DNA of 64,000 nucleotides, from contig JAWKSQ010000001.1 of assembly GCA_041389045.1 (NCBI GenBank), positions 203,063-267,062 of the forward strand. The letters run 5' to 3'. This document shows, one piece after another, positions 4,594 to 57,126 of this stretch; position 1 is the stretch's first letter, and every line of letters starts with the position of its first letter. The notes beneath the pieces are model-generated. The model saw only the letters and a program-made list of their open reading frames with translations. It ran no database searches and had not been told where the DNA came from. A program made the translations under genes and the position numbers. This DNA is from Minisyncoccota bacterium (GTDB lineage Bacteria; Patescibacteriota; Minisyncoccia; Phycocordibacterales; UBA918).

Positions 4594-6278
4594 ATGAAAG
4601 AAGTTATTGAACAAGCGATTAAAGAGATTTGTCAGGAACTCCGTTTACCAGCGGTGGCTTTTGTCGTCGAGCACCCGGCCGAGACTTCCCATGGTGACTA
4701 CGCTTGTAACATAGCCTTGGTGCTTAGTAAGCAGGTCGGAAAGCGCCACGAGCAGTGGCGGAAGAACTGCTTGTGGCGCTTGATGGTCAAATCGAATATG
4801 TTGATCGCTTAGAAATAGCTGGTCCTGGCTTCATTAACTTCTATTTAGCTCAAGAATTTTTTGTGAGTGAACTGGTCCGTATCCATGAACTTGGTGATAG
4901 TTGGGGGAAGAATAGTGACTTAGTAGGGAAGAAGGTGCTAGTAGAATACACCGACCCCAATCCGTTTAAAGAGTTTCATATCGGGCATCTTTTCACCAAC
5001 GCCGTCGGTGAAAGTATCGCTCGACTATTTATGATGCAGGGAGCTGATACTAAGCGTATCAATTACCAAGGTGATGTAGGTTTGCATGTGGCGCACGCTG
5101 TGTGGGGAATGCAGAAACTAGGTATTTCCCGGGTAGTGACTTTTCGGCGCGTGAACTCGGCAAAGCCTATGCTCTCGGCGCCACAGCCTACAAAAATGAA
5201 GAGGAGAGGCCGTCGCTGAGATTAAGTCCATCAATAAAAAAATCTACGAACGTAGTGACGACAGTGTGAATGCGCTTTATGATGCTGGTCGAAAGGTTTC
5301 GCTAGAATATTTTGCGACAGTTTATAAAGTGTTAGGGACGGAGTTTTCTGATTACTTTTTTGAAAGTGAGACTGGTCCGCTGGGTAAAAAGTTGGTCTTA
5401 GAAAATCCAGAAATATTCCCTTTAAGTGATGGAGCCAATGTTTTTAAGGGGGAAGAGTACGGTCTGCATACTAGAGTATTTTTGAATAAAGAAGGTTTAC
5501 CGACCTACGAAGCGAAAGAATTAGCTTTGGCTAAACTAAAAGAAGACAGACTTGGCACTTATGATTTGTCGGTTATTTCTACTGCTAGTGAAGTTAATGA
5601 ATATTTTAAAGTGCTCCTTAAAGCTCTTAGTTTTATTTACCCAGAACTATCGGCTAAGACTGAACATATCGGGCATGGCATGGTCAGACTAACGACCGGT
5701 AAGATGTCATCACGAACTGGTGATGTGATACCGGCTCTGGATTTTATTGATGAAGTGGCCGAGTCAGCCACTAAAAAATGGCCGACAGCGGACATACTGA
5801 GCCTGACACTGATTTAGCTTGGGAGGTGGCGATTGCGGCTATCAAGTACACCACGCTTCGTGGCAATATCACCCAGAATTCTATTTTTGATAAAGACAAG
5901 GCTTTGTCGTTTGAGGGCGACTCTGGTCCGTACTTGCAGTATACCCATGCGCGTATTTGTAGTGTGCTCGAGAAGGCTAAGCTCTCTGGACTAAGTGCTG
6001 ATGTGGATTTGGCGCCAGAGAAACCATACGCTGTCGAGCATCTTATCTATATTTTCCCGGAAGTAGTGAAAGAGGCGTTTTTAGAAAGAGCGCCACACAA
6101 AGTGACTGGCTTTTTGACGGAGCTCGCTAGTGCTTTTAACTCATTTTACGCCGAAGAAAAAATCGCCGATGATACTGATACTTATGCTCCATATAAGATT
6201 GCTGTGACAGAAGCAGTAAGGCAAACAATCAAAAATGGTCTTTGGATATTAGCTATCAAAGCCCCAGAGCGGATGTAA
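4594..6278 (+). CDS. argS: arginine--tRNA ligase, split into 4 ORFs by four single-base deletions
   Basis: All four ORF-track pieces (4582-4812, 4755-5219, 5266-5817, 5778-6278) read as consecutive ArgRS segments (..EYTDPNPFKEFHIGHL.., ..KMSSRTGDV.., ..LQYTHARICS..). Frame changes sit near 4748 (aaa), 5126-5128 (ccc), about 5203 (gagagg) and 5771-5776 (a6). Confidence 0.9.
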
Positions 6279-6313
6279 TGTTTAAGCCCCGCTAGTCTTG
6301 CGACTAGCGGGGC
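6272..6313 (+). repeat. copy A of a 42-nt direct repeat: last codons of argS plus a terminator hairpin
   Basis: gatgtaatgtttaaGCCCCGCTAGTCttgcGACTAGCGGGGC. Apart from one loop base it is identical to 6740-6781. The 12-bp stem can act as a bidirectional terminator. Confidence 0.85.
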
Positions 6314-6319
6314 GGAGCC

Positions 6320-6661
6320 TTATCTTTCGGCGAGGAGCCGAAGTGTAGTGGTTGCTGTGGCTTTGGTCCTTCCATTGTCCCACTCCACTATTGCGTTGAA
6401 CTTAGTGTGGCCAGCATGATCAGGTAGAGGGGATATATAGATGACTACACCGGTGTCTTTTTCGATCATGCTTTGAACTCTTTTTCCTAACCACTCCATT
6501 TGTAGTGACTTGATCTGCTCTGCTCGTGTAGCAACTGTAGATTTGTGTCTGTTGAGCCACTCAATCATTGTGAAGCAACTATTCCGAGTTGGTGGTGGAA
6601 TCAGTCCCAATTCCTGGAGGGTAGTGATTTGTCTGGCCGTGGGTTCTGTAATCTTTGGCAT
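6320..6661 (-). CDS. hypothetical protein (ORFan)
   Basis: 113-aa ORF with AAGGAG upstream. It has its own promoter module (6698-6726) and terminator module (6286-6313). Confidence 0.6.
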   Translation of the reverse strand: MPKITEPTARQITTLQELGLIPPPTRNSCFTMIEWLNRHKSTVATRAEQIKSLQMEWLGKRVQSMIEKDTGVVIYISPLPDHAGHTKFNAIVEWDNGRTKATATTTLRLLAER

Positions 6662-6739: not shown

Positions 6740-6781
6740 GATGTAATGTTTAAGCCCCGCTAGTCTTTCGACTAGCGGGGC
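6740..6781 (+). repeat. copy B of the 42-nt direct repeat (terminator hairpin)
   Basis: gatgtaatgtttaaGCCCCGCTAGTCtttcGACTAGCGGGGC lies immediately 3' of the minus-strand gene 6807-7313. Confidence 0.85.
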
Positions 6782-9066: not shown

Positions 9067-9187
9067 TTATTTTCAAAGGTGGGATTTGTGGTATGCTGAA
9101 TATCCGTATCTGATATATACGGTCTTATTATGTCTGATAAACATACCCGAAGTTCATAATTTTTGGGCTTTGGAAATAAATATATTT

Positions 9188-12100
9188 ATGAAAAAAATAC
9201 ATGGACGGGAGAATGATTCAGTGGAGGTAGTACCAGAGGTAACCAAATCTGACGTGTCATTGCGAGAAGAGGCGATACAAAAGTTTTGGGACGAGAACGA
9301 TATTTTTAATAAAAGTTTGCATGCTCCAGCGGGAGCAGAGCCTAAGGGCGATTTTGTATTTTATGATGGGCCACCGTTTGCGACGGGTACGCCACACTAC
9401 GGCCATATTTTAGCCGGAACAATTAAAGATGCCATTCCACGTTTTTGGACGATGAATGGTTTTCGGGTGCGTCGTAAATGGGGTTGGGATTGTCATGGTC
9501 TACCACTCGAGAACTTGATCGAGAAGAAACTTGGTCTGGCTAACAAGCGTGATATCGAAGAATACGGCGTCAAGAATTTTAACGAACAAGCTAGAGAGGC
9601 TGTACTTGAGTATCGTGACGACTGGAAAAAAGTAGTGCCTCGTATGGGACGCTGGGCAGACATGGAAGACGACTACAAGACCATGGATAGCACTTATACG
9701 GAAAGTGTGTGGTGGGTATTTAAGTCCCTATACGAAAAAGGCTTAGTGTATGAAGGTTTTAAGAGTATGCATCTTTGTCCACGTTGTGGGACAACCTTGT
9801 CTAACTTCGAAGTAAATCAGGGCTATAAGGATATTAAAGATATTGCGGTGACGGTAAAGCTCCCGCTTCTAGATGATGCAGGTAATAAGACTGATACTGC
9901 ACTTTTGGTTTGGACAACTACTCCTTGGACTTTGCCTGGTAATATGGCTGCGGCGGTGAATAAGGATTTTGATTACGTGAAAGTAAAGGTAAAAGCTGAA
10001 GCAGGTGAAGAAAATTTGCTTTTAGCTAAAGGACGGCTTGCGCAACTGGGTGATTTGGCGTACGAGGTAGTAGAAGAAATAAAAGGCTCTGAGTTGGTGG
10101 GTAGAAAGTACGAACCACCGTTCGATTATTTTAAACATGATGAAAGGGTATTAACAGACTGGGTATGGACTATTTTTCACGCTGACTACGTCGAACTTGG
10201 CGAAGAGGGAACTGGGGCGGTGCACTTGGCTCCAGCCTACGGTGAAGACGACATGGTATTAGCTAAAGCGGAAGGAGTACCAATCGTGCATCATGTTGAC
10301 TACGAGGGGCGTTTTATGGATTTTGTGACTGACTTCGCTGGGAAGCTAGTAAAGCCAAAAGATGATGACGATGCCGGGGTATCTCACCTGGACGCTGATA
10401 TTGAAATTGTGCGTGCTCTAAATGCCTCCGGTAAATTATTTAAAAAAGAGAATATCACTCACAGTTATCCGCACTGCTGGCGTGATGATACTCCACTTCT
10501 CAACTACGCGACTACATCATGGTTTGTGGAGGTGACCAAAATTAAAGATGAACTGGTAGAAGCTAACAATAAAGTGAAGTGGGTACCAGAGCATGTCGGA
10601 AGTAACCGCTTTGGGCGCTGGCTTGAGGGCGCGCGCGACTGGGCTATTTCTCGTCAGCGTTATTGGGGGGCTCCGCTTCCGATTTGGCGTAATCCTAAAA
10701 CTCAGGAATACAAAGTCTTTGGCTCTTTAGCTGAACTACAAGAATACGTGCCAAAGAGTGGAAACACTTATGTGCTGATGCGTCATGGTGAGACTGGATC
10801 AAATTTAGAACATAAAATTAGTTTAAAACCCGATGGTGTTGATCCTCTCACAAGTCGTGGTGTAGAGCAGGTCACTGAAGCGGTAAAAAACCTAGATCAA
10901 AAAATTGATCTAATAATCCACACTGGATTTGAGAGAACCAGAGAAACGGCAGAAATAGTAGCTAAAATTTTGAATCTGACACCTGAAGCAGTTATCTGTG
11001 AACCAAGGTTAGGGGAGATTAAAATGCCCGAAGACATGCAAGGAAAGATTTGGTCTGAATATGACGCCTTATTTCCAGAGTGGACAGATAGATATACCAA
11101 AAAAATTGAAGGCTATGAAAACCGCCTCGATGTTCGCCGTCGCTCAGGTGAGTGGTTGTTTGAAACAGATGCAAAGTATAAAAACAAAACAATCTTAGTG
11201 GTTGGTCACGGATGTAGTATATTAGAACTTGAAAGTATATTTGCTGCAACTGACGAGAAAACTGCTGAAGAGGTGTACGAGTCTAGACAATATTATAAGA
11301 ATGCCCAAACTGAAGAATATAAGCTAAATAAGTTCCCCCATAACGATGATTATTTACTTGATTATCATCGACCATACATAGACGACTTTGAGTTAGTAGA
11401 TACCGACGGAGTTAAGTTAGTTCGGGTACCAGAAGTCTTTGACTGCTGGTTTGAAAGTGGGTCGATGCCGTATGGACAACAACATTATCCGTTCGAGAAT
11501 AAAGCCAACTTCGAGAAAGAGTATTTTCCAGCGCAGTTTATTGCGGAGGGTCTTGATCAGACTCGCGGTTGGTTCTATTCACTGATCGTGCTTGGTACAG
11601 CGCTTTTTGGTAAGTCGCCGTATGAGAACGTTATTGTAAATGGACTTGTGCTGGCGGAAGACGGCAAAAAGATGAGTAAGTCACTGCGTAATTATCCTGA
11701 CCCGATGGAACTAGCTGACCGGGTGGGGGTAGACGCGATGCGTTACTACTTACTTTCCGCACCGATTATGCGTGGTGAAGATTTGGCTTTCTCCGAGAAG
11801 GAAGTCCTTGAGCTTCAACGAAAGAATATCGGACGTTTGCACAATGTGCTTGCGATGTATGAAATGTTCGCCGATGGTACCGAGGTGGTGGCAGATTCAA
11901 AAAATATTCTCGACCGTTGGATTGTTTCTCGCCTTAATCAGTTGGTTAAAGAATCGACCGAAGGTTACCAGAATTACGAACTAGATAAAGCAACTAGACC
12001 AATAGCGGACTTCATTGATGATGTGTCGGTGTGGTATTTGCGTCGTAGCCGGGAGAGACTGAAGGGAGATGACGCCGAGGATAAGAAATTGGCTCTGGGC

Positions 12101-12742
12101 ACTCTTAGATACATACTTCGGGAGCTGGCTAAAGTGATGGCACCGGCTATGCCTTTCTATGCTGAGTATTTGTGGCGGGTGGTGCGAAATGAAAACGAAG
12201 TTGAGAGTGTGCACTTAACGGCCTGGCCAGAGGGAGGGGAGATTGTGAGTGAACTAATTGTCAGTATGACTAGTGTGCGTTCGTTTGCGAACATGGGACT
12301 TAAACTGCGTACGCAAAAGAATATTGGTCTCAAGCAACCACTTAAACAATTCATCATTGGAGACTCATTTGTAGCACCAAAAAATTGGGAGGAGTGTGCC
12401 GGTATTTTGGCTGATGAATTAAATGTAAAAGAGGTGGTTTTGCGACCAGAACTGGAAGGGGTTAGCTTTGACTTTGATATCACGCCTGAACTTAAGCTGG
12501 AAGGCGAGGCGCGGGAGTTTATTCGAGCGGTGCAGGAGAGGCGCAAAGCCGAAGGCTTTGCGCCTCAAGACGAGATCGAATTGATCATAGACACTGACGA
12601 AGCTGGGCGACATTTAGTGGAAACTCATCAAGCTACAATAACTAAGATCGTCGGGGCCAGTCAGGTGGTTTTTGCGGAAACTGTTGGTGAGTCTATCATG
12701 GCTGGAGAAAAGACTTTCACTGTAGCGCTAAAGAAACTCTAA
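9188..12742 (+). CDS. ileS: isoleucine--tRNA ligase carrying an inserted histidine-phosphatase-family domain
   Basis: PHYGHIL (HIGH), TTTPWTLPGN (editing domain), WAISRQRYWGAPLPIW, FDCWFESGSMPY and KMSKSL are all present. The likely start is the ATG at 9188, because the ORF-track start at 9086 adds a non-homologous leader. See the nested domain feature. Confidence 0.92.
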   Translation: MKKIHGRENDSVEVVPEVTKSDVSLREEAIQKFWDENDIFNKSLHAPAGAEPKGDFVFYDGPPFATGTPHYGHILAGTIKDAIPRFWTMNGFRVRRKWGWDCHGLPLENLIEKKLGLANKRDIEEYGVKNFNEQAREAVLEYRDDWKKVVPRMGRWADMEDDYKTMDSTYTESVWWVFKSLYEKGLVYEGFKSMHLCPRCGTTLSNFEVNQGYKDIKDIAVTVKLPLLDDAGNKTDTALLVWTTTPWTLPGNMAAAVNKDFDYVKVKVKAEAGEENLLLAKGRLAQLGDLAYEVVEEIKGSELVGRKYEPPFDYFKHDERVLTDWVWTIFHADYVELGEEGTGAVHLAPAYGEDDMVLAKAEGVPIVHHVDYEGRFMDFVTDFAGKLVKPKDDDDAGVSHLDADIEIVRALNASGKLFKKENITHSYPHCWRDDTPLLNYATTSWFVEVTKIKDELVEANNKVKWVPEHVGSNRFGRWLEGARDWAISRQRYWGAPLPIWRNPKTQEYKVFGSLAELQEYVPKSGNTYVLMRHGETGSNLEHKISLKPDGVDPLTSRGVEQVTEAVKNLDQKIDLIIHTGFERTRETAEIVAKILNLTPEAVICEPRLGEIKMPEDMQGKIWSEYDALFPEWTDRYTKKIEGYENRLDVRRRSGEWLFETDAKYKNKTILVVGHGCSILELESIFAATDEKTAEEVYESRQYYKNAQTEEYKLNKFPHNDDYLLDYHRPYIDDFELVDTDGVKLVRVPEVFDCWFESGSMPYGQQHYPFENKANFEKEYFPAQFIAEGLDQTRGWFYSLIVLGTALFGKSPYENVIVNGLVLAEDGKKMSKSLRNYPDPMELADRVGVDAMRYYLLSAPIMRGEDLAFSEKEVLELQRKNIGRLHNVLAMYEMFADGTEVVADSKNILDRWIVSRLNQLVKESTEGYQNYELDKATRPIADFIDDVSVWYLRRSRERLKGDDAEDKKLALGTLRYILRELAKVMAPAMPFYAEYLWRVVRNENEVESVHLTAWPEGGEIVSELIVSMTSVRSFANMGLKLRTQKNIGLKQPLKQFIIGDSFVAPKNWEECAGILADELNVKEVVLRPELEGVSFDFDITPELKLEGEAREFIRAVQERRKAEGFAPQDEIELIIDTDEAGRHLVETHQATITKIVGASQVVFAETVGESIMAGEKTFTVALKKL
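10760..11355 (+). other. nested histidine phosphatase (phosphoglycerate-mutase superfamily, branch 1) domain within ileS
   Basis: LMRHGETGSN .. LTSRGVEQ .. GFERTRETA .. RLGEIKMPEDMQGK .. VVGHGCSI lies between two IleRS core blocks, in frame, with no stops. Confidence 0.75.
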
Positions 12743-18334: not shown

Positions 18335-18784
18335 CTAAACACGAAGCAAAACTTCCAATCGATTGGAAGTTTTAGGGAGGTTTTTATAGCGGTCTAGTCC
18401 GTTATAATGAGGAAGAATTCCGTTTAAGTGTAGAATGGAGTCAATGGTGTCTAGAATTGAACGGTAGTTTTTTGTGTTTTTGGCCAGTAGCTTAATTATC
18501 CCGTCATAGTTTTTTGCCTCAATACTCTTTTGGACTTTATCAGCTGTGCTAGGGCTAATTTTTAAGATAAGAGAAGCCTTGTAAGGGGAGATTCCTTCAA
18601 GGATAAGAATAAGACAAGCTAAACGTTTAGCTATCATCACGCGTTCTTCATAACCAAGTAGTTCAGATAGAAAATTATCTGCATCAGAAGCAGAAGATTT
18701 ACCTAACATTACACTCAATTGTGTAAAAAGTTCTTCTAATTGAGACTTAGTTAACTGATTGCGATTGAGATGAACCATAACCAT
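18335..18784 (-). CDS. TrpR-like / YerC-YecD-family helix-turn-helix protein
   Basis: 149 aa. ..EERVMIAKRLACLILILEGISPYKASLILKISPSTADKV.. resembles the Trp-repressor-like fold family (assignment by eye). Confidence 0.55.
   Translation of the reverse strand: MVMVHLNRNQLTKSQLEELFTQLSVMLGKSSASDADNFLSELLGYEERVMIAKRLACLILILEGISPYKASLILKISPSTADKVQKSIEAKNYDGIIKLLAKNTKNYRSILDTIDSILHLNGILPHYNGLDRYKNLPKTSNRLEVLLRV
18348..18373. repeat. 26-nt perfect palindrome inside the 3' end of the TrpR-like gene
   Basis: aaaaCTTCCAATCGATTGGAAGtttt. It shares 23 identical nt with 18793-18815. Confidence 0.9.
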
Positions 18785-18792
18785 AGTCTACT

Positions 18793-18815
18793 AAAACTTC
18801 CAATCGATTGGAAGT
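18793..18815. promoter_or_regulatory. second copy of the palindrome, in the 55-nt divergent intergenic region (candidate operator)
   Basis: aaaaCTTCCAATCGATTGGAAGt lies 9 nt upstream of the TrpR-like start and 25 nt upstream of the tatD ATG. Confidence 0.6.
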
Positions 18816-18839
18816 CTGGATTATGGTATAGTGGGGCTG

Positions 18840-26760: not shown

Positions 26761-28987
26761 CTAACTTTCTCGACGCTCGTCGTCACTTTCGGTGTCTGTG
26801 TCACCAGAGTCACTGTCTCGACCGGCTATCACTTCACGGGCTCTCGAACCATCAGCTGGTCCGATAATGCCTTGTTCTTCGAGTATGTCCATGAGTCTGG
26901 CCGCTCTCGAATAGCCGATCCGGAGCTTGCGTTGTAGGTAAGAAGTAGAGGCCTTACCAGCTTCTATGACGGCCTCTTTGGCATCTTCGAACATGTCATC
27001 ACCTACATCGTCGTCATTACCGTCTAGGGAAGACATAAATGAGGTAGCGCTACCTTCTTTTTGGTCATCGAGGTTAATAGTGTCTAAGGCTCCAGCTTCT
27101 TGCGACTTGAGGTAGCTCACCACACTCTTGATTTCTTCTAGTGAGACGAAGGCAGATTGAATACGAGTTAGTCTTGGGTTATCAGATGAAAGGTAAAGCA
27201 TGTCACCTAAACCGAGTAGTTTTTCCGCTCCCATTTGGTCGATGATGGTACGAGAGTCTATTTGCGAAGCGACGTTAAGGGCGATACGAGTCGGTACGTT
27301 GGCTTTGATGGTACCAGTGATGACGTTTACGGAAGGTCTTTGGGTGGCCAGGATGAGGTGGATACCGACTGCTCGACTCATTTGCGCCAAGCGCACGATA
27401 ATGGCCTCCAGTTCACGTGGATAGGCTTGCATTAGGTCATTAAGCTCGTCGAGGATGATAACGATATATGGTAACGGTTCAGGCAAGTTTTCCTTCTCTT
27501 CTTCTGGACTACCTTTCTCTTCCCAAGCTTTTTTGGCTGGCTGATAGACATTACTATGATACAGATCAATACCCTGGACACCTTCAGCTTGCAAAACGTC
27601 ATAGCGTCTAGCCATTTCCTTCACTGCCCAGCCAAGAGACTTAAGCGCTTTCTTTGGTTCAGTAATGACGGGGGTGAGTAGGTGAGGGATACCATTATAT
27701 AGAGTTAGTTCTACACGCTTCGGGTCGACGAGAATAAAGCGTAGTTGATCGGGGAGTTTCTGAAAAGTAGTGACATGACCAAATTGTGAATTGTCACTGA
27801 CTTTCCCGAGCCGGTTGTACCCGCGATGAGGGCATGTGGCATTCGAGCGATGTTGGCGAAGTGGACGCCACCGGCCACGTCTTTACCAAGAGCGACTAGT
27901 AGTGGACGAGGGAGTCGGTGTATTCCGGGTTCTTTAATAGAGAAGCTAGTCCAACAGTTGAACGCACAGCATTTGGTACTTCAATACCTACCAGTGACTT
28001 ACCGGGAATCGGGGCTTCGATACGAATAGTGCTAGCCTTCAGAGCCAACTGAAGTTCTTGTTGCAGGGCGACGATACGTGAGATGCGGACACCTTGAGCT
28101 GGCTTGAGCGAGTAACGGGTGATAGCTGGACCATTCTCGACGGCGTCCATTTCAACGTTAATGCCAAACTCCTTCAGGGTCCGCTTGATGGTTAGTGAGT
28201 TAGCTTTAACATCACCAGCCATTGCCTTTCCTTTATCTTTACTAAGAAGAGTTAAAGATGGGGGAATGTAGTGTCCACTAAAGTGCTTGATGACGATGTC
28301 ACTAGTGTTCTTTTCTACCCCGAGGGCCTCGCTTACTTTACTAGTGACAGCCCGTAAACCTTTTTTCTTTTCCGTGTCTTCTTCTTCCTCTTCAGGTTCG
28401 GCTTTGGTTTCTGGCGTATCGGCTAGTTCAGGGATACCAAGTTCAGCTAGGTCAATTAAATCTTCATCTTCTTCTGATACCTCATCTTTCTTTAAGAAAC
28501 CAGGCAGACCGATACCGGTATTAAAACTAAGAAAGATGCCGATTAGGACCAGGCCAGTAAGTAGAACACCAGTGACCATTGTTCCAAATAGCAGGGTTAG
28601 TGGGTAGGTGAGGGCTAGTCCAGCCATTCCACCTAAGTCTACTTGGTAGAGTTCAAGCATCGCTAAAACTGAGAAGAAAATTAGCGAAATGCCAACTATC
28701 TTGGAAGTACTCACTCGTTCGTCTTCTCGGGGCTTCATGAGGGCAAAGACATAGAAAGCACAGGTAATCGGTGCTAGCCACGCTCCGCTCCCGAAGAGCC
28801 AACTTAGGCCTGTGTGAGTGATGTTCCCAGCCAAACCAGCGTAGTCTAGAAGTGACAGTAAAAAGAAAATACCAAGCACTCCCATCACTACTGCTCCAAT
28901 CGCTTGTCTAGCTTGAGGAGACAGATCGTCAAATAGTGGGGTTCGCTCACTTATGTCGGTCGCTTTTTTCTTTCTGGGCATAAACAC
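26761..28987 (-). CDS. ftsK: DNA translocase FtsK/SpoIIIE, interrupted by two single-base deletions
   Basis: The N-terminal membrane domain (27896-28987) and the C-terminal motor plus gamma domain (26761-27624) are separate ORFs. The piece between them reads ..LVALGKDVAGGVHFANIARMPHALIAGTTGSGKSV.. (Walker A) in the third frame. Frame changes sit near 27910 (ggg) and 27751-27754 (gggg). Confidence 0.9.
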
Positions 28988-41328: not shown

Positions 41329-41544
41329 CCTTACAGGAATGTAAGGGTGTATGGTGGATGCCTAGGCTTCAAGAAGCGATGAAGGACGTGTTATGGCTGC
41401 GATAAGTTTCGGCGAGGTGCCAAATAACCTTTGACCCGGAAATGTCCGAATGGGGAAACCCTCCTGTCATCGGCAGGAACCTATGTATGTAGGAGCTCAC
41501 CCAGCGAAGTGAAACATCTCAGTAGCTGGAGGAAAAGAAAGCAA

Positions 41545-41611
41545 TATACGGAACTTTCTTTCTGATCAGATTCAACTTCGGTTGAGCCATTATGATCAGG
41601 AAGAAGGTTCT
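41545..41611 (+). other. about 66-nt expansion hairpin in 23S domain I
   Basis: E. coli GGAAAAGAAATCAACCGAGATTCC is interrupted as ggaaaagaaagcaa[..]tgcgattcc. The insert is a long hairpin: cggaactttctttctgatcag / (c)tgatcaggaagaaggttc. Confidence 0.6.
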
Positions 41612-41882
41612 TGCGATTCCCTTAATAGCGGCGAGCGAAACGGGATCAGCCCAAACCGTACGTATTTATATGTGCGGGGTTGTAGGGCAAAGACGGCATT
41701 TAGTTGCGAAGAGTTACAAAACAGATTGATAAAAAAACGCTTTGGAAAGAGCGACCCCAGAAGGTAATAGTCCTGTATTTGAAATCTATCTGACTCTTTT
41801 GTTTTTGTTCCTGAGTAGTTCGAGACATGAATAGCTCGAATGAATCTACCAGAACTAACTGGAAAGGCTAAATATTCTTGAA

Positions 41883-41928
<46 letters not shown>

Positions 41929-43368
41929 GGAGAGGGGAGTGAAATAGATCTGAAACCATACACCTACAAGGAGTCGGAGCCTCAATTTATTGGGGTGACG
42001 GCGTGCCTATTGAAGAATGAGCCGGCGAGTGTGTCTTTGTCCTTTGTCTAAGTGGTAAACCCACGGAGGCGCAGTGAAAGCGAGCGTGAATAGCGCGAAT
42101 ATAGGGCAGGGATACGACCCGAAGCGTGATGAGCTTGCCATGAGCAGGGTGAAGCGACAGTAAAATGTCGTGGAGGCCCGAACCGGTTGGCCGTACAAAA
42201 CCATCGGATGACTTGTGGTAAGGAGTGAAAAGCTTATCGAATTACGTAATAGCTGGTTCTCTCCGAAACAGCTTTTGGGTTGGCGTCGCGTGGTCCCCCT
42301 GGGGGTAGAGCACTGGAAAGAAAAGACAGGGAGAAATCTCGCTTTTCTTATCAAACTCCGAATACCAGTGGATTATAGCGCGGCAGTTAGACTATGGGGG
42401 AGAAGCTCCATTGGTCGAAAGGGAAACAGCCCAGATCGCCAGTTAAGGTCCCTAAATATATACTCAGTGCAAAGTGAGGAGGTGAGGATTCACTAACAGT
42501 CAGGAGGTTGGCTTAGAAGCAGCCATCCTTTAAAGAAAGCGTAACAGCTCACTGATCGAGAGTCCTTGCGCCGAAGATGATCGGGGCTCAAGTATATTAC
42601 CGAAACTGCGAATTCGTACCTTAGGGTACGAGTGGTAGGAGAGCGTTCGTATCTGCGATGAATGGAAGGCGGAAGCCGACCTGGAGCGATGCGAAGTGAG
42701 AATGCCGGCACAAGTAACCGCAAGACGGGTGAGACCCCCGTCCGCCGAAATACCAAGGTTTCCTTTGCGATGGTGATCATCGAAGGGTTAGTCGGTCCTA
42801 AGAGAATCCCGAATGGGGGACTCGATGGATAGCAGGTTAATATTCCTGCACACTGCTGCGTTCCTATGGAGGGACGGAGCGTTGTACTTACAGCATCTTA
42901 TTGGATTGGTGCTGGAGCACTGAGGAAGTCACGTAGGCAAATCCGCGTGGCAATATTCCGAGGTGAGTCTGAAGGTGAGGCTACGGCCGATCTGATGTAA
43001 GGAGCACGCTTCCGAGAAAAACTTCGTTTGGGTTAAGCATAGTGGTTCCGTACCGCAAACCGACACAGGTGGTAGAGTCGAGAAGACTAAGGCGAACGAG
43101 TGAGAGGTCCTCAAGGAACTCGGCAAAAAAGCGACCGTAACTTAGGGATAAGGTCCGCCCTTATAGAAGTATAAGGGCCGCAGCGAAAGATTTCCTGCCG
43201 ACTGTTTAACAAAAACACAGCTCTCTGCGAACACGTAAGTGGATGTATAGAGGGTGACGCCTGACCTATGCTGGAAGGTTAAGTACGGGGGGTGGTATGT
43301 ATTTATATGTACTGCTGGACTGTATAAGCCCCAGTAAATGTCAGCGATAACTATAATCGTTCTAAGGT

Positions 43369-43586
43369 CGAGCACCTTATTTTTAATAAGGTGCTCGACG
43401 GATTGGAACGGTTATAGGTTAAACAGCCTAGCCACAGTTACCTTACCTACGGAAACGTAGAGTAATCCAAATCTAGCCAACAAGAGACCAAATGCTAGAC
43501 ATCCGCAACGGGTAATGCCGTGGATGAAGATAGAGTCCTATTGGTGCACTTGCAAGTAAGGCTTGCAGTTTAAGAAGGAAAAATAG
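43369..43586 (+). ncRNA. ORF-less group-I-like intron in 23S at E. coli position 1931
   Basis: The exons rejoin as CTAAGGT|AGCGTATTTCCTTGTCGGGTAAGTTCCGAC, matching E. coli C1925-C1961. The 5' exon ends in U and the insert ends in G. The insert has GNRA-capped hairpins (ctacgGAAAcgtag, ..gGTAAt..). Confidence 0.7.
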
Positions 43587-44223
43587 AGCGTATTTCCTTG
43601 TCGGGTAAGTTCCGACGTGCACGAATGGCGTAACGAGTGGGAAACTGTCTCGAGGACCTGCTCGGTGAAAATACAATCCCGGTAAAGATGCCGGGTACCT
43701 GCAGATAGACGAAAAGACCCCAGGTGCTTTACTGTAGCTTCGTATTGAGGCTATTGAATTAATGCGTAGCATAGGAGGGAGACTTTGAAGTGGGCTTTCG
43801 GGTACCATGGAGTCGCCAGTGAAATACCTCTCTTTATTTTGGTAGTTTCTAACCAGATAGAAAAAATCTATCTGAGACAGTGCGTGGCAGGCAGTTTTAG
43901 TGGGGCGCTACCCTCCCAAAAAGTAACGGAGGGGTCTCAAGGTTGGTTAGGCGCGAATGGAAACCGTGCCGATAGTGTAATGGCATAAACCAGCTTGACT
44001 GTAAGGCGTAGATGCCGAACAGACGCGAAAGCGGAGCATAGTGAACCGATGGATTGCGTTAGATGCATCCGGAGATACCCGATAAAAGTAACCCTGGGGA
44101 TAACAGGCTAGTCGTGCCCAAGCGTCCATAGCGACGGCACGGTTCGGCACCTCGATGTCGGCTCGACTTATCCTGGGGCTGGAGCAGGTCCCAAGGGTTT
44201 GGCTGTTCGCCAATTAAAAAGTC

Positions 44224-44261
<38 letters not shown>

Positions 44262-44308
44262 CTCCTATCTACTGCAGGCGTCGATTCTTGAGGAGAGTTG
44301 TTCCTAGT

Positions 44309-45089
44309 AAATTTTTGCTACTTTAGGGAGAGATCCCTAATGACAACATGGCTTATAACGGTGAAGTCTACGTCACTTCCGGTTTTAGAGGTCAATACAC
44401 CATGGTCCAGTGTGTATTGAATTCGCTTGAGGACCGGAAAATTGATATGATAATACCGTGGGAAGTCGATCCAAAACAGATTTAGCATACATTGCAGGTT
44501 TCCTTGATGGAGATGGAAGCATAATGTTGCAAGTAAAACTTCGCAGTGACACCAGTCGCGGCGTGAGATTTATGACTACATTATGTCTCTATCAAGATAC
44601 TCGCCACGCGAAGCCACTTAGCTGGATGCGTGAAGTACTTGGTATCGGGTATTTATCCAATCGTAATGATGGGATGACCGAGCTAAGGATTAATGGTTTT
44701 GCTTCAGTACACAAAGTGCTTACACAACTACGACCTTTTATAAGATTCAAGACAGTTCAAGCGGATGCTTTAATGCAGGCTTGTACAATTTTGAATTCAA
44801 AAAAGATTAGTAAATTGTCTGAGCAAGAACTGCAGAGTTTAGTAGAAATTGTCTTTTTAATTAAAGACCACAACTACAAAAGCAAAGCTACTTTGTGTAA
44901 AGAAACATTGCTACTTCGATTGGGTTTGACCCCGTAACGACTTGCGCTGAAAGATGCGCGGACGCATACGCTGAGGAATCATTTCATAGAAAATGACTGC
45001 TCGTATGTGTAAGATGCCATCACCCTCGCTACTGTCCATGTAGACGGGTGAAGATATAGTCTGTGCTCCTAGAAATAGGGGAATCAACG
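44309..45089 (+). mobile_element. group-I-like intron splitting the 23S sarcin-ricin loop (after U2656, E. coli numbering), carrying a LAGLIDADG ORF
   Basis: The exons rejoin as TTCCTAGT|ACGAGAGGACCGG. The 5' exon ends in U and the insert ends in G. A possible P1 pairs uagU with Gcua (44317-44320). Hairpins carry GAGA and GAAA tetraloops. Confidence 0.75.
44458..44937 (+). CDS. LAGLIDADG homing endonuclease (single-motif, I-CreI-like size)
   Basis: 159 aa with ..DLAYIAGFLDGDGSIML.. close to the N-terminus, located inside the 23S intron. The start is GTG. Confidence 0.88.
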   Translation: MGSRSKTDLAYIAGFLDGDGSIMLQVKLRSDTSRGVRFMTTLCLYQDTRHAKPLSWMREVLGIGYLSNRNDGMTELRINGFASVHKVLTQLRPFIRFKTVQADALMQACTILNSKKISKLSEQELQSLVEIVFLIKDHNYKSKATLCKETLLLRLGLTP

Positions 45090-45168
45090 ACGAGAGGACC
45101 GGAATGAACGAACCTCTGGTCTATCGGCTGTCACGCCAGTGGCACCGCCGAGTAGCTATGTTCGGAAT

Positions 45169-45201
<33 letters not shown>

Positions 45202-45620
45202 AACTCCAAGATTAGGAATCATTAAGTCCCCTGAGAGATGATCAGGTTGATAGGCACTAAGTGGAAGCACAGCAATGTGTGGAGCTGAGGTGTACTAATA
45301 GGACGTAATTCCTGTAAGGAACGTTGCACATCGCCTTGAGCGTAAATTAACGAATTTCTTCGTTGCAGTGTCAAAAATAATTTTCGCTGGACTTCGTGTC
45401 CCGCTTGAATTCTTTTTGACACCACGCCTCGAAATTCATTTAATTTTCATCTCAAGGTTTGAAACAAGCTGTATGATTTGAAAAGTGTTTAAGTTGTGAT
45501 TTTACCTAGGGTCGGCAAAAGCTTCGCTTTTGCCGACCAAGAATTAGAATATGCGGTATAGTTTAAGACTATATTTATATTGAAAGTAGTAATAAGATCG
45601 TCAAGGTCTTTACTTTAAGT

Positions 45621-45697
45621 CTCTCTGTAGCTCAGCCGGGTAGAGCGTTGGACTCCAAATCCAAAGGTCGCAAGTTCAAATCTTGCCAGGGGGACCA
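45621..45697 (+). tRNA. tRNA-Trp (anticodon CCA), CCA end encoded, located between 23S and 5S
   Basis: CTCTCTG TA GCTC AGCCGGGTA GAGC G TTGGA CT-CCA-AA TCCAA AGGTC GCAAG TTCAAAT CTTGC CAGGGGG A CCA. It is bracketed by a 15-bp long-range stem (45583-45597 / 45716-45730). Confidence 0.85.
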
Positions 45698-45767
45698 TCC
45701 ATCACATTGTGATGGTCTTATTACTACTTTTGATATAGTTGTCACAATATTGCTATTGAAAATTTAA

Positions 45768-45877
45768 TGTTGGTGCTTTAGCGGAGAGGGTCCACCCGAT
45801 CTCATTCCGAACTCGGAAGTTAAGCTCTCCATCGCCGATGGTACTTCGCAAGAGGAAGAGTAGGTAGGCGCCAACAT
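45768..45877 (+). rRNA. rrf: 5S ribosomal RNA
   Basis: ..CCGAACTCGGAAGTTAAG..CGCCGATGGTAC..GAAGAGTAGGTAGGCGCCAACA with the ends pairing (tgttggtgc/gcgccaaca). Confidence 0.9.
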
Positions 45878-45894
45878 TAAGTTTTTTAATACTC

Positions 45895-45937
45895 CTAAAG
45901 AAAAGACCTCTGGTTTAAACCAGAGGTCTTTTCTTAG
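45895..45937 (+). terminator. strong terminator after 5S
   Basis: ctaaagaaaagacctctgg / ccagaggtcttttcttag forms an approximately 18-bp stem. Confidence 0.8.
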
Positions 45938-46087
45938 GAGAGCAAACCACAAGGTTTGCGACTACCGTGGAGAGTAGGTCCCGCTTACAGCGGCTGTCCA
46001 CTCATTGGACCTTTTCTTCGCTAGCTCAAAAAGTTCTCAATGAGTCTTGCGAAATGGGTCCCATCCCATTTCTCACGCCAACATTTT

Positions 46088-46131
46088 AACGAATACCACA
46101 ATTAATTACGTAATTAATTGTGGTATTCGTT
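46088..46131. repeat. 44-bp perfect palindrome
   Basis: aacgaataccacaattaattac|gtaattaattgtggtattcgtt. Each 22-nt arm is the exact reverse complement of the other. Confidence 0.95.
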
Positions 46132-46171
46132 ACTAATTAGCTGGGTTTTATTTTGTCTTATTACTGTCTTG

Positions 46172-46308
46172 GTCCAGCGATTTTCCTTCCGAGGAAAAAT
46201 CTCGGCAGGATGTAATATCGTTTTCTCCCTTCTGGGTCGAAAACAATATTACATCTGCATAAGTAAAATATAGTCGAAGCCATGCTTCTCGTTATTTTAC
46301 TTAACATA
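46172..46308 (+). ncRNA. copy 1 of a ~137-nt three-hairpin repeated element (candidate small RNA or cis-regulatory RNA)
   Basis: Aligns over its full length with 56211-56348. Conserved blocks are gtccagcgattttcctt, ggcaggatgta, ttttctccct..ggggtcgaaa, ataagtaaaatatagtc and ttattttacttaacata. Differences fall in loops or as paired changes in stems. Confidence 0.6.
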
Positions 46309-46493
46309 CACCACAAGAGTATTTCCATTTTCATAGTCGTTTCACTCTTTGAAAATTAGGTCAATTCGCAATAGTTAAGTAAAACAACGAGCGGAAGCTA
46401 GTATGTTTTTCTCATGTCAGAATTTGTTTTGCCCATAGCAAATTTTGACCGCTACGCTCGTTTGCTTATTCATCTGATACAATATGTCTATAT

Positions 46494-47930
46494 ATGAGTA
46501 GGTTTCGTCCTTGGGCCTTTTGGCGACGTTTAGTTTATGGTACTGGCTTTGCTAGCTTTTGGCTGGTGGTCGGGGTAGTAGTTTATTTCACTAGTTTCTA
46601 TTCGCCTGCAAACTGTTTTGATAATATCCAAAATGGTGGAGAGGGTGGTGTTGATTGTGATGGTCAGTGTGTCCGGATTTGTGCGGTGTCTGTCATTCCA
46701 CCAAGTGTGGTTTGGGTGGACAGCTTTAAGATTGTTGATGGTCAATACAATGCAGTGGCGTATGTAGAAAATAAAAACAGTCAGGCTTCAACGCGAGACC
46801 TAAAGTATACTATCAAGCTACTCGATCAGGGGACTCTGATTGCAGAGCGTGAAGGGGTAACTATCTTACCCCCTAACAGCGTTTATCCGATTTTCGAAGG
46901 GCGGATTTTGACTGAAGGTGGCAGGGCTCCGACTGAGACCTTAATTGAGATAGCGGAAGCTGATTTGTGGCTCCCGGCCACTATCGGACGAGACCAATTT
47001 AGAGTTTTAGATATTGACCTGACTAATGCTGACAGTCGTCCAAGACTTAGTACAAGTATTGAAAATACCGCTTTAATTAACGCTGAGGATGTAGAAGTGG
47101 TAGCTACTATCTTTGATGCTAGAGGGAAAGCGGTGACAGCTTCGCAAACTTTTATTGATAATTTCGACGCTCGTAGTACTAGGGAAGTGGTCTTTACTTG
47201 GCCAAACAGTATCGCCAAGACGGTTCGTAGTTGTGAGGTGCCGTCAGACATTATGCTGGTACTCGACCGGTCGGGTTCGATGACTGCTGATGGTGTTAAT
47301 CCTCCAGAGCCACTGACGAGTGCCAAGTTGGCTGCTAAAGCCTTTGTGAATCAAGTTAAGAACGATAATTTACTTGGCTTAGTTTCTTATGCTACAACAC
47401 CGACCAGTCCGCTTGAGCAGGAACTTACCAATGATAAAAGTGTCTTAGCTACAGCGATTGATGAAGTGGTGATGGGTAAGGATGGTGTGCAGTACACCAA
47501 TATGGGAGATGCTTTCAAGGTGGCCCTAGCCGAACTAACTAGTGCTAGGCATCGCCCTGACGCACGTAAGGTAATTATTTTTCTCACTGACGGTGATGTG
47601 ACCAGGCCAGTAAATCCAGAGACAGGACTGGCTGACCGTGACTACGCCGCTAAGTATGCTGAGGAAATGGCCTCGATTGCTAAAGCTAAAGATACCACCA
47701 TCTACACCATTGGTTTTGGTAAGTTTTTTGCTGGTGAGGACGCTTCAATTGCCCGCGATAAAGAATTAATTAAGAACCTAGCTTCCGAACCTAGCCTGTA
47801 TTTCGAAGCTCCGACAGTCTCTGATTTAGCAAGAGTGTACGAACAAATTGCCAGTGGTCTGTGTGAAGATGGTCCATCGCGCATTGAGGTTATTACTAAG
47901 ACTAGCACTAACTTCACCCCTCTGAGGTAG
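46494..47930 (+). CDS. membrane-anchored von Willebrand factor type A (vWA) domain protein
   Basis: N-terminal TM segment, a Cys-rich segment and the MIDAS motif ..MLVLDRSGSM.. with ..IIFLTDGD... Confidence 0.8.
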   Translation: MSRFRPWAFWRRLVYGTGFASFWLVVGVVVYFTSFYSPANCFDNIQNGGEGGVDCDGQCVRICAVSVIPPSVVWVDSFKIVDGQYNAVAYVENKNSQASTRDLKYTIKLLDQGTLIAEREGVTILPPNSVYPIFEGRILTEGGRAPTETLIEIAEADLWLPATIGRDQFRVLDIDLTNADSRPRLSTSIENTALINAEDVEVVATIFDARGKAVTASQTFIDNFDARSTREVVFTWPNSIAKTVRSCEVPSDIMLVLDRSGSMTADGVNPPEPLTSAKLAAKAFVNQVKNDNLLGLVSYATTPTSPLEQELTNDKSVLATAIDEVVMGKDGVQYTNMGDAFKVALAELTSARHRPDARKVIIFLTDGDVTRPVNPETGLADRDYAAKYAEEMASIAKAKDTTIYTIGFGKFFAGEDASIARDKELIKNLASEPSLYFEAPTVSDLARVYEQIASGLCEDGPSRIEVITKTSTNFTPLR

Positions 47931-55180: not shown

Positions 55181-56158
55181 ATGTTTGTAATCTTGTATCG
55201 TAAAGTATTTCTCTACATCACGGCTTTCATTGTGGTAGGAGGATTGCTAGCCTTGTTTGGCTATGGTCTTAAGCCAAGTATTGATTTTACCGGTGGGTCT
55301 TTGACCGAGGTCTCATACAACACTACGTTACCAGAGAAGTCCTTAGTGGAAGAAAAGATTTCTGAACTTGATTTAGGCGGTTTCAGTGTACGAGAGTCAC
55401 AGGATGACGGCGGGAGAGATGGCTACCTGATTCGGACTCGTGATCTAACAGATGAGGAAAGGGAGGTCTTGTCAGCCCTAGTGACTGAAATAGGTGAAGG
55501 TGGCGAGGTTACTCGCTTTACTTCGATTGGTCCAGTAATCGGACAAGAACTGAGAGATAAAGCAGTTTGGGCGATTGCTGGGGTGTCCATCATTATCATG
55601 CTCTACGTCGCTTTTGCTTTTGCTGGTATTGGCTACCCGGTTAGCTCGTGGGTGTATGCTTCTATCACTATCTTTATTCTTATTCACGATGTATTGGTGC
55701 CGGCTGCTCTGGTCAGTATCTTAGGTCACTTTGTTGGCATGGAAGCTGATGTGCTTTTTGTAATGGCACTGTTGGCGGTACTTGGTTACTCAGTTAATGA
55801 TACGATTGTGGTTTTTGACCGCGTACGAGAAAATCTGAAGCTTAATCGAATAGAGAAAAAGACTAAACGCAATGAGGCTGGGATAATTAGAGAAGATATT
55901 ACTTATACTTTGACCAAGCCCTATGAAGAAATAGTTGGTTCAGCTGTAACTCAATCGATGGCTCGTTCAATCAATACTTCACTCACTACACTCTTAACTT
56001 TAATTGCTCTTTATATCATTGGTGGAGCTGCTACTCAGACTTTTGCGCTCGTCCTGATTGCGGGCGTGGTCGCTGGTACTTATTCGTCTATCTGTATTGC
56101 TACGCCAATGCTCGTGACTTACGCTAAGTGGCAGGAGAGTAAGAAGTCTGTAAGTTAA
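55181..56158 (+). CDS. secF: protein translocase subunit SecF
   Basis: ..GLKPSIDFTGGS.. and ..LGYSVNDTIVVFDRVREN... Confidence 0.92.
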   Translation: MFVILYRKVFLYITAFIVVGGLLALFGYGLKPSIDFTGGSLTEVSYNTTLPEKSLVEEKISELDLGGFSVRESQDDGGRDGYLIRTRDLTDEEREVLSALVTEIGEGGEVTRFTSIGPVIGQELRDKAVWAIAGVSIIIMLYVAFAFAGIGYPVSSWVYASITIFILIHDVLVPAALVSILGHFVGMEADVLFVMALLAVLGYSVNDTIVVFDRVRENLKLNRIEKKTKRNEAGIIREDITYTLTKPYEEIVGSAVTQSMARSINTSLTTLLTLIALYIIGGAATQTFALVLIAGVVAGTYSSICIATPMLVTYAKWQESKKSVS

Positions 56159-56210
56159 AGAGAGATTAGCATTTTATCAGTTAATCTGTAGTTTTAAATA
56201 GAGTTTGTTC

Positions 56211-56348
56211 GTCCAGCGATTTTCCTTAGAATAGAAAATCTTGGCAGGATGTATATGCTATTTTCTCCCTGTGGGGTCGAAACTAGCGTTACATATGTAT
56301 AAGTAAAATATAGTCAAAGTCTTACTTTTCCTTATTTTACTTAACATA
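56211..56348 (+). ncRNA. copy 2 of the ~137-nt three-hairpin repeated element
   Basis: See 46172-46308. This copy lies immediately downstream of secF and about 215 nt upstream of the kinase gene. Confidence 0.6.
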
Positions 56349-56385
56349 AATTCAATATAATCACTACGGTCATTATTTCATTTAC

Positions 56386-56425
56386 GATAATCGGTATCGT
56401 CGGTTCACTAGGAGGAGGAAAGGGT
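56386..56425 (+). repeat. upstream copy of a 40-nt perfect direct repeat (pseudo 5' end of the kinase gene)
   Basis: gataatcggtatcgtcggttcactaggaggaggaaagggt is identical to 56567-56606. Here the codon preceding it is ACG instead of ATG. Confidence 0.9.
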
Positions 56426-56564
56426 GAGACAGTCTGGGAGACTGTTGCAAGACCTTGCCAGTAACTTTACGAATACTTGAAGTAAAGTAGCGACAAGGTG
56501 TACAGTGTCTGTAAGGCACCCGGACCCGGTTTAATTTTATTCAGTAACTTAATTTTATTTGTTT

Positions 56565-57126
56565 ATGATAATCGGTATCGTCGGTTCACTAGGAGGAGGA
56601 AAGGGTACGGTCGTTGAGTATCTTCTCAGTAAAGGTAATTTCTCACACTATTCTAGTAGTGATTTATTAATCAAGATTCTGGAAGAAAGAGGCGAAACGG
56701 TAGATAGAGACGGCATGAATCGTGTAGCTAACGAGCTCAGGGCACAGAATCCTGCCGGTGTACCAGCCGAAAATTATAAAGTTTATGAAGCTAATGACGG
56801 TACTTCTGATGCTATTTTTGAATCACTACATTCTGTTCCAGAGGTAGAATTTATTAAATCAGTCGGAGGAGTTGTGATTGGGGTAACGGCAGATTCAAAT
56901 ATACGCTATGACAGAATCCTTAAGCGAGGGAGTGTAAAAGATGGGGTGACTAAGGAGAAGTTTATAGATCAACAAAAAAAGGGAAGAGGCTGGCTCTGAT
57001 GATCCAAATAAAAGTAATATTTTTAGTGCGCTTAAGGAGGCTGATTTTTTGATTGAGAACAATGGTACTTTAGAGAATTTACACGCTCAAGTAGATAAGA
57101 TACTGGAAGAATTAAATCAGATTTAA
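56565..57126 (+). CDS. P-loop nucleotide kinase (dephospho-CoA kinase / dNMP kinase-like), one indel near 56974-56983
   Basis: MIIGIVGSLGGGKGTV.. Walker A. After the a7g3 run, the sequence ..EEAGSDDPNKSNIFSALKEADFLIENNGTLENLHAQVDKILEELNQI continues in the +1 frame to the TAA at 57124-57126. Confidence 0.7.
56567..56606 (+). repeat. downstream copy of the 40-nt direct repeat (true 5' end of the kinase gene, P-loop codons)
   Basis: It encodes IIGIVGSLGGGKG of the CDS starting at 56565. Confidence 0.9.

Follow-up and report, generated by a model that had tools for sequence, protein, structure and literature searches.

Two copies of a folded intergenic repeat in a Minisyncoccota genome belong to a previously uncatalogued family found across the Candidate Phyla Radiation

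The bacterial repeats closest to the element described here are the REP/BIME, ERIC and BOX sequences. The REP/BIME sequences of Enterobacteria, which are associated with RAYT transposases, are extragenic, occur at gene 3' ends or between cistrons in either orientation, and consist of clustered hairpin modules in which the hairpins are maintained; they serve as mRNA 3' stabilisers, attenuators and protein docking sites. Likewise, the ERIC (IRU) sequences of Enterobacteria and Vibrio, ~127 nt in length, occupy transcribed intergenic sites in either orientation and across genera, differ in presence among related genomes and keep their fold through compensatory substitutions, no transposase having been identified for them. 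The BOX elements of Streptococcus pneumoniae are modular (boxA, a variable number of boxB, boxC), have stable predicted folds and are found in intergenic regions near gene ends. Here we describe an element that occurs twice, at positions 46172-46308 (copy 1) and 56211-56348 (copy 2), in a 64,000-nt stretch of a Minisyncoccota bacterium contig (JAWKSQ010000001.1, positions 203,063 to 267,062; hereafter the window). Both copies belong to a family of folded intergenic repeats, not catalogued before, that extends across the Candidate Phyla Radiation (CPR).

The element resembles all three systems, yet it can be assigned to none of them. As with REP/BIME sequences, its copies are extragenic, located at gene ends, clustered and found in either orientation. 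However, a REP is a single palindrome of 20-40 nt with a 5' GTAG and is specific to a species or genus, whereas the present element measures 100-140 nt, contains two to three dissimilar modules, has no GTAG at the module starts and is recognisable across CPR classes; nor was a RAYT gene seen among the open reading frames (ORFs) scanned in the window or beside the copies. ERIC forms one long imperfect palindrome, in contrast to the chain of distinct hairpins with an invariant apex found here, and shares no sequence relationship with it. BOX is built from other modules and sequences and belongs to one genus, whereas the present family spans a superphylum. Unusual features of the family are its multi-module grammar, its invariant core and a sequence that stays conserved between CPR classes, all in otherwise streamlined genomes.

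Two folded copies and their relatives

The two copies, both on the + strand, align end to end with 81% identity (114 of 140 columns identical in a global alignment), whereas over the 60 nt to each side identity falls to a background level of ~52-53%, the flanks being unrelated. The predicted folds of copy 1 (-48.2 kcal/mol, z = -8.1) and copy 2 (-38.6 kcal/mol, z = -4.5) were not equalled in stability by any of 200 shuffled sequences in either case. The consensus fold of both copies comprises 42 predicted pairs, of which 7 have changed on both sides in a compensatory manner and 4 on one side, and none is broken; at 19% divergence, the absence of broken pairs indicates that the copies diverged without harm to their pairing. 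The initial annotation, made from the sequence of the window, had proposed two ~137-nt copies whose stems stay paired despite their differences, at roughly 185-215 nt upstream of + strand genes, and these claims are confirmed: the distance to the ATG is 185 nt for copy 1 (a vWA protein gene, 46494) and 216 nt for copy 2 (a P-loop kinase gene, 56565). Its description of the third hairpin as an identical stem around a different loop was too simple, as the interior of that hairpin is itself a small inner hairpin with two compensatory pairs (GAAGC/GCUUC versus AAAGU/ACUUU).

Relatives were sought with a pattern for the apex of the second hairpin, TTTTCTCCCNNNNGGGTCGAAA, scanned over genomes, one per species. 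This gave 20 loci: 10 in metagenome-assembled genomes (MAGs) labelled as CPR (Saccharibacteria, Paceibacterota, Kaiserbacteria, Parcubacteria), one (L014) in an unclassified 'bacterium' MAG with weak covariance-model matches only, and 9 outside the CPR. The rest of the element was present only in the CPR loci and L014, the 9 non-CPR loci sharing the apex pattern alone. A scan of metagenomes with a stricter apex pattern yielded 40 further loci. In alignment A3, which contains 43 sequences with a hand-set structure, 93.2% of cells are paired, compared with ~41% when the partners are slid, and 190 cells are changed on both sides, compared with 59 in shuffles. The initial annotation had proposed a covariance-model search, and when the model built from A3 (R1) was applied to the CPR loci, 91 matches were obtained at E<0.1 and 68 at E<1e-9, 66 of the latter being distinct. 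In the alignment of these 68 sequences the pairing amounts to 92.6% (~41% in slid controls) and compensatory changes occur in 25 of the 30 pairs, values that none of 500 shuffles reached; within the helices of the second hairpin, compensatory changes affect 17 of 19 pairs (alignments A3 and A7). When the window was scanned with R1, only copy 2 (100.5 bits, 56237-56349) and copy 1 (96 bits, 46198-46309) stood out, the next best match scoring 17 bits.

The initial annotation recognised no known family, and none was found. Neither copy matched Rfam 15 at the gathering threshold, the element matched no family even at E<=5 with permissive filters over 44200-46600 and 56100-56650, and no description of it was found in Rfam 15 or the searchable literature. 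The element likewise does not conform to a MITE (miniature inverted-repeat transposable element), a riboswitch or a known ribozyme. MITEs such as the Correia element of Neisseria are similarly small, non-coding, multi-copy, close to genes and variably present between strains, but they have terminal inverted repeats and target-site duplications, whereas the only inverted repeats of the present element are its internal hairpins and the only shared sequence at its borders is an ambiguous CTT. With riboswitches and 5' leaders it shares conserved core nucleotides, covarying stems and an occasional tandem arrangement; unlike them, it has no consistent same-strand upstream position and no coherent regulon, and orthologous spacers lack it. 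For the self-cleaving ribozymes (hammerhead, hairpin, twister, hatchet, pistol) there was no Rfam match, and the CUGAUGA and AGAA cores are absent from the consensus. K-turn, loop E, the hammerhead and hairpin-ribozyme cores, the template and variable repeat pairs of diversity-generating retroelements, integron attC sites, TnpB omega RNA and IS110 bridge RNA were dropped because the motifs or adjacent genes that define them are missing. TIGR-Tas systems are taken here as short guide-RNA arrays beside Tas genes, and no Tas gene or short-period array is present.

Module anatomy and genomic setting

The element has a conserved core of ~100 nt, formed by modules termed H2 and H3, and the window copies carry a further module, H1. 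H1 consists of GUCCAGCGAUUUU followed by a hairpin. H2 is an irregular hairpin of ~55 nt that has GCRG/CUGY at its base and contains an asymmetric internal loop as well as a conserved bulge; the middle stem shows free covariation, and the apex, UUCUCCC-N4-GGGUCGAA, is invariant throughout the family. H3 starts 1-2 nt after H2 and runs from UAAG through an A-rich arm, AUAGUCG, a small GC hairpin with a stable tetraloop, CUCSUU and a U-rich arm to CUUA, and the pair next to AAG/CUU occurs in all four Watson-Crick forms (UA, CG, GC, AU). The termini (5' YUUGGCRG, 3' ...CUUA) are asymmetric and not reverse complements of each other. Pairing is almost wholly of the Watson-Crick type (1174 of 1288 cells, versus 27 G-U and 15 A-C), so that the hairpins of the element form on both strands. 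Of the 27 G-U cells, 13 stem from a single pair, and one pair is recurrently G-U (AU in 45 sequences, GU in 15 of 66). The nucleotides of the H2 apex and of the AUAGUCG/CUCSUU loop are invariant and strand-specific; together with the recurrent G-U pair they hint at a partner that reads the sense strand.

The modules also occur in other arrangements. H1-type hairpins stand directly ahead of an H3-type hairpin, without H2, in loci L075 and L019; head-to-tail arrays with a period of 94-99 nt are found in L063, L090, L093 and L095; and runs of H3-type hairpins, truncated units and H3-type hairpins with others nested inside also occur. The motif TCCAGCGATTT lies beside family members in five independent CPR loci (L009, L019, L074, L075, L085), the matches in L056 and L091 representing the same region as L019 and being counted once. 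In the window, the stretch that follows copy 1, up to ~46476, contains two further H3-type modules (Table 1), conserved in L075 and partly in L086. The latter of these has a nested hairpin, UCAGAAUUUG../..AAAUUUUGA, with compensatory changes relative to L075, and gives a weak covariance-model match at 46370-46425. The additional module after copy 2 is 95% identical over 38 nt to L019:5806-5843 (Kaiserbacteria), where the counterpart comes after an H1-type hairpin and directly adjoins the start codon (ATG) of a gene for an FtsX-like permease.

Table 1. Positions of the two copies, their modules and adjoining repeats in the window
Feature	Position	Strand	Basis or detail
Copy 1 (modules H1+H2+H3)	46172-46308	+	identity to copy 2, covariance-model match, fold
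H1 of copy 1, GCGAUUUUCC..GGAAAAAUC, with GUCCAGCG motif ahead of it	46178-46204	+	predicted fold
H2 of copy 1, long irregular hairpin, apex UUCUCCC-N4-GGGUCGAA at 46223-46241	46205-46258	+	family alignments A3, A7
H3 of copy 1: UAAG, A-rich arm, AUAGUCG, GC hairpin 46276-46288, CUCGUU, U-rich arm, CUUA	46260-46303	+	covariation, terminator-like flag
Second H3-type module, CACCACAAG..AUUUUC-AUAGUCG-..-CUCUUU-GAAAAU..UAGGUC	46309-46362	+	conserved in L075 (where it follows 5S) and L086, with stems changed in a compensatory manner
Third H3-type module, interrupted by a nested part that includes 46374-46391; 5' arm AAUUCGCAAUAG, 3' arm CGCUCGUUUGCUUAUUCA	46364-46476	+	colinear conservation with L075
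Copy 2	56211-56348	+	H1 56217-56243, H2 56244-56298 (apex 56263-56281), H3 56300-56343
Extra H3-type module right after copy 2, ending at the kinase pseudo-start	56347-56384	+	match to L019
45-nt duplicate of the kinase gene start: 56381-56425 (ACG) and 56562-56606 (ATG)	56381-56606	+	direct repeat D2, 98% identical

The genomic context was counted over 73 copies. Upstream genes share the strand of the element in 35 cases and are opposite to it in 27, the corresponding counts for downstream genes are 28 and 26, and copies between co-directional genes are sense in 16 cases and antisense in 15; the orientation of the element is independent of the neighbouring genes. The copies are located at gene ends, H3 very often reaching an ORF boundary with its 3' end. 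Among the 26 convergent cases there are 12 in which the stop codon of the convergent neighbour lies within the CUUA/UAAG base of H3, the genes concerned being smc (3 loci), rpsA (2), groES (2), ftsZ, dnaB and others. Neighbours also include vWA, kinase, dnaX, pth, HU, aldolase, signal peptidase and rRNA genes, and do not form a functionally coherent set; the vWA and kinase proteins of the window have no exact-sequence match on record.

These counts bear on one of the three options offered in the initial annotation, a riboswitch-like leader. In this scheme the element would control the vWA and kinase genes in cis, as a riboswitch or attenuator in their leaders, with a switch formed by alternative pairing of the 3' arm region of H3, located at 46288-46305, with a near-perfect complement at 46374-46391. 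Both window copies do lie on the same strand as the gene that starts downstream of them, the structure is conserved with invariant loop nucleotides, and the complementarity exists (17 of 18 positions). Across the family, however, only 28 of 54 downstream genes share the strand of the element, and its neighbours are housekeeping genes unrelated in function. A switch is unlikely as well, since 46374-46391 belongs to a different conserved hairpin module, which L075, a locus lacking H3, retains and which has no counterpart at copy 2; a 329-nt fold keeps H3 local. Moreover, a likely -10 box, TGATACAAT (46475-46483), separates the vWA ATG from the element.

Comparison with relatives leads to the same result. 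The gene order vWA, ftsW, GT4, sugar transferase, folD, secD, secF, kinase is shared with four relatives (L097-L100), whose SecF proteins are 84% to 71% identical to that of the window. In all four, the spacer between secF and the kinase gene is 6-20 nt or the genes overlap, with no element, compared with 406 nt in the window, where this spacer holds copy 2. In combination, orientation and synteny largely refute a leader function, the chances of which we regard as very slim, and we do not take the copies for leaders of the vWA and kinase genes.

Translation starts in the window have features of their own. The start regions of 31 window ORFs contain almost no Shine-Dalgarno motif, and TGnTAnnnT or TAnnnT boxes are present at many starts, about 3-13 nt before the start codon (e.g. 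TGATACAAT before 46494 and 51772, and TGTTATACT before 52893). This suggests that mRNAs of this genome may be leaderless or have very short leaders. With -10-like boxes located 6-12 nt ahead of the ATG and no Shine-Dalgarno motif, the element would probably lie upstream of promoters and not in a 5' untranslated region, a further point against a leader. The ATAGT in H3 was also considered as a -10 box for downstream genes, and rejected as its distance to the start codon varies (24, 37, 52 nt).

Gain, exchange and retention at individual loci

The element-free spacers of the four syntenic relatives identify copy 2 as an insertion in the window lineage. In the same spacer the start of the kinase gene is duplicated 181 nt upstream, and the pair of duplicates brackets 136 nt (56426-56561) with no Rfam match, no meaningful similarity in other loci and a fold no better than that of shuffles; the duplication and the 136 nt belong to the rearranged locus of insertion and lie outside the element itself. 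The kinase itself has 144 aa in the window and 182-193 aa in the relatives, and the window lacks the DUF805 gene that comes next in three of the four (L097-L099). The 5S-vWA spacer of L099 measures 128 nt and lacks the element, but an antisense copy is present between 23S and 5S, whereas L100 has none. Between this antisense element and 5S, at L099 840-1100, a long-range complementary pair, GTGGTGACAAGGT ... CACCTTGTCACCACG, surrounds ~200 nt of GC-rich sequence.

Other loci document exchange as well as persistence. At the smc locus of two genomes the SMC proteins are 96% identical and the flanks 83-95% identical at the nucleotide level, and the element only 62%; the two elements belong to different subfamilies and differ by an extra block of H1 plus terminator. 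Since the element is far more diverged than SMC and the flanks, it was replaced and did not diverge in place. Conversely, element identity at groES and rpsA is 69-75%, compared with 71-76% for coding DNA and 51% for the adjacent spacer, a coding-like conservation that points to purifying selection on the resident copy. At least one tandem array, that in L095, is accounted for by duplication between short homologies (microhomology). These modular structured repeats have thus been copied into intergenic spacers, tandem-duplicated, nested and exchanged between loci, and family members that were gained, duplicated or exchanged are retained under selection at some loci.

Several of these observations would be expected of a purely selfish, non-autonomous mobile element without host function, whose hairpins would be recognised by an enzyme acting in trans, for example an HUH/Y1 transposase on single-stranded DNA, as for IS200/IS605-derived elements and REP/RAYT, or a reverse transcriptase. 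In favour of it are the variable presence among syntenic relatives, the replacement at smc, the tandem, nested and decayed copies, the random orientation relative to genes and the near-exclusive Watson-Crick pairing, as expected of DNA hairpins. The asymmetric termini without inverted repeats also fit, as does a CTT that both precedes the 5' end and closes the 3' end in most copies (in tandem arrays the two are one and the same CTT), and the occurrence of the same subfamilies in different CPR classes is compatible with horizontal transfer. IS200/IS605-derived elements (PATEs) similarly have asymmetric ends, subterminal imperfect hairpins, no terminal inverted repeats and stems dominated by Watson-Crick pairs. 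Unlike these, the present element has two dissimilar hairpins, no TnpA or TnpB was seen near the copies, and no orientation bias is evident along one long contig: on a contig of 962 kb the strands are mixed within a few kb (few data points), an argument against strict targeting of the lagging strand. Neither a transposase nor a reverse transcriptase was found beside any copy or among the window ORFs scanned, and the same ORFs and copy neighbours include no Y1 transposase. A transposon formed by inverted copies around an ORF was rejected, since the enclosed ORFs are housekeeping genes (pth and others). Further, copies within one genome are diverged and not near-identical, so that there was no recent burst; the persistence at groES and rpsA with coding-like conservation and the origin of the L095 array by microhomology-mediated duplication, not insertion, are likewise at odds with a purely selfish element. 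In IMG/VR viral contigs, the apex pattern gave only chance or coding matches, as judged by eye, and the H3 pattern gave no covariance-model match in the 80 loci checked. A purely selfish nature is consequently considered unlikely.

A possible role at transcript boundaries

The reading that we favour is that the stable hairpins act as transcript-boundary elements and the invariant loops dock a conserved protein, a proposal in which we have moderate confidence, the balance for and against being about even. According to it, the modules, which are retained at gene boundaries in either orientation, would act there through very stable hairpins. H3 could terminate or attenuate transcription in both directions and also stop 3' exonucleases, with the stop codons of convergent genes falling in its base; its succession of A-arm, GC-hairpin and U-arm is the anatomy of a two-way terminator, and H3 of copy 1, with its inner hairpin and U-rich tail, was flagged as terminator-like on both strands. 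The invariant unpaired nucleotides of the H2 apex and the AUAGUCG/CUCSUU loop would be the docking site of a putative conserved protein, which may also promote the spread of the element.

A number of observations weigh against this proposal. The inner hairpin of H3 is short (4-6 bp), and that of copy 2 is AU-rich and was not flagged as terminator-like. A canonical terminator already lies after 5S and before copy 1, so that the element is not needed there for termination. The invariant, strand-specific loops and the recurrent G-U pair would be left unexplained if hairpins alone mattered, and suggest a partner on the sense strand. At the copies examined, neither a mobilising enzyme nor terminal inverted repeats nor a clear target-site duplication came to light, filled and empty sites being too diverged to resolve such a duplication. 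Sequence conservation across CPR classes is far deeper than is usual for REP-like repeats, and a role at the RNA level is, for the element as a whole, something we infer.

The strand-specific features raise the alternative of an independently transcribed family of stable small RNA genes, acting in trans or as components of a ribonucleoprotein (RNP). H2 would then be the functional domain and H3 the intrinsic terminator of the gene, the subfamilies would be conserved in the manner of tRNA isoacceptors, and some copies would be co-processed with 5S rRNA. Consistent with this, paralogues in one genome differ more than same-subfamily copies across classes, those of L006 (Saccharibacteria) and L019 (Kaiserbacteria) being much closer as judged by eye; the sense-orientation H3 is terminator-like, the element is conserved in place at groES and rpsA, and the invariant unpaired nucleotides and the conserved G-U pair would find an explanation. 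The association with 5S rRNA points in the same direction. Sense copies lie just downstream of 5S in at least five loci including the window (copy 1 is 322 nt downstream of the gene), often in tandem, and in three of these loci antisense copies are found between 23S and 5S too. The rRNA-linked copies are embedded in 5S-like termini (GUUGGC..GGCGCCA, the element, then AAC-AUUAAG), which look like decayed 5S duplicates, and the 3' end of the element, CUUAAC-AUUAAG, resembles that of 5S, GCCAAC-AUUAAG.

On the other side, no upstream promoter at a fixed distance was detected, the base profile from -70 to 0 over 49 copies containing no -10 or -35 signal; conservation ends ~5 nt ahead of GCRG, and a promoter scan upstream of copy 1 found none. 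At both groES loci the element lies antisense between groES and groEL, inside an essential operon, and other antisense copies separate 23S from 5S; a promoter directed against the heavy transcription at these sites would lead to collisions. The identical tandem units and the truncated or nested modules are repeat-like rather than gene-like, and G-U pairs, at ~2% of cells, are very rare for an RNA family. According to a transcriptome paper on TM7x, small RNAs had yet to be validated (10.1101/2022.03.25.485537). A small RNA gene family is therefore regarded as improbable, and we are similarly doubtful that the element represents a new CPR-specific class of functional RNA, i.e. a stable small RNA or RNP scaffold that would either bind a conserved protein through the invariant H2 apex and the AUAGUCG/CUCSUU loop or be catalytically active, and would exist in many paralogous versions partly co-processed with 5S from the 3' end of the rRNA operon. 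Two related ideas were rejected. The element is not a 5S rRNA paralogue, as it gives no 5S model match and has two adjacent hairpins instead of a three-way junction, and antisense and sense copies around 5S seem, as judged by eye, too diverged to pair over the length needed for a processing stem. Among the options of the initial annotation, the structured mobile repeat thus fits best; the leader is contradicted by strand counts and empty spacers, and a discrete small RNA, for which no promoter at a fixed distance is seen, has a low probability.

The rRNA cluster upstream of copy 1 has the order 23S, tRNA-Trp, 5S. The 23S gene (41331-45319) contains, close to its 3' end, a group I intron (weak Rfam Intron_gpI match at 44762-45082) that carries a LAGLIDADG homing endonuclease ORF (44458-44937), a layout also present in L075 and L078. 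The tRNA-Trp gene (45621-45697) is flanked by a 28-nt inverted repeat (45576-45603 and 45710-45737, 86% complementary) that may be a processing stem. In the region 45877-46135, the canonical two-way terminator hairpin downstream of 5S (~45893-45935) is followed by sequences like the 3' part and end of 5S rRNA (GACTACCGTGGAGAGTAGGTCCCGC; CACGCCAAC followed by ATTTTAAC), suggestive of a decayed 5S duplicate, and these by a perfect 46-nt palindrome (46087-46132).

Elsewhere in the window, arginyl-tRNA synthetase is seemingly split into three consecutive ORFs (4755-5219, 5266-5817, 5778-6278), which could reflect frameshifts, a pseudogene or assembly errors. A 42-nt direct repeat (6272-6313 and 6740-6781, 98% identical, with a GC-rich hairpin inside) flanks a 113-aa ORF without Pfam match (6320-6661, - strand). 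An isoleucyl-tRNA synthetase-like protein of 1218 aa (9086-12742) has a His_Phos_1 histidine phosphatase domain inserted at residues 563-712. A 149-aa ORF without Pfam match (18335-18784, - strand) lies between 41-nt inverted repeats containing the palindrome AAAACTTCCAATCGATTGGAAGT (18335-18831), and the two together may be a small mobile cassette. FtsK (26761-28987, - strand) is split into two ORFs, 27896-28987 and 26761-27624, separated by a gap of ~270 nt, and the first half of the motor domain is unaccounted for in them.

Genomes of the CPR (Patescibacteria) are ~1 Mb in size and densely packed, and repeats and regulatory RNA are thought to be scarce in them. The present family contributes 66 distinct copies in the few hundred kb sampled, from Saccharibacteria to Paceibacterota, beside rRNA, groESL, smc, rpsA, ftsZ and dnaB. 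Its covariance model can be used to annotate regions now seen as unexplained long spacers or spurious ORFs, and insertion polymorphisms of the element could serve as strain markers. Either the family is a selfish element of unusual age and success, or it supplies a missing piece of the gene-expression machinery of the CPR, such as one concerned with transcript boundaries or protein-docking RNA. If the element were indeed a functional RNA, it might compensate for functions lost in these minimal genomes.

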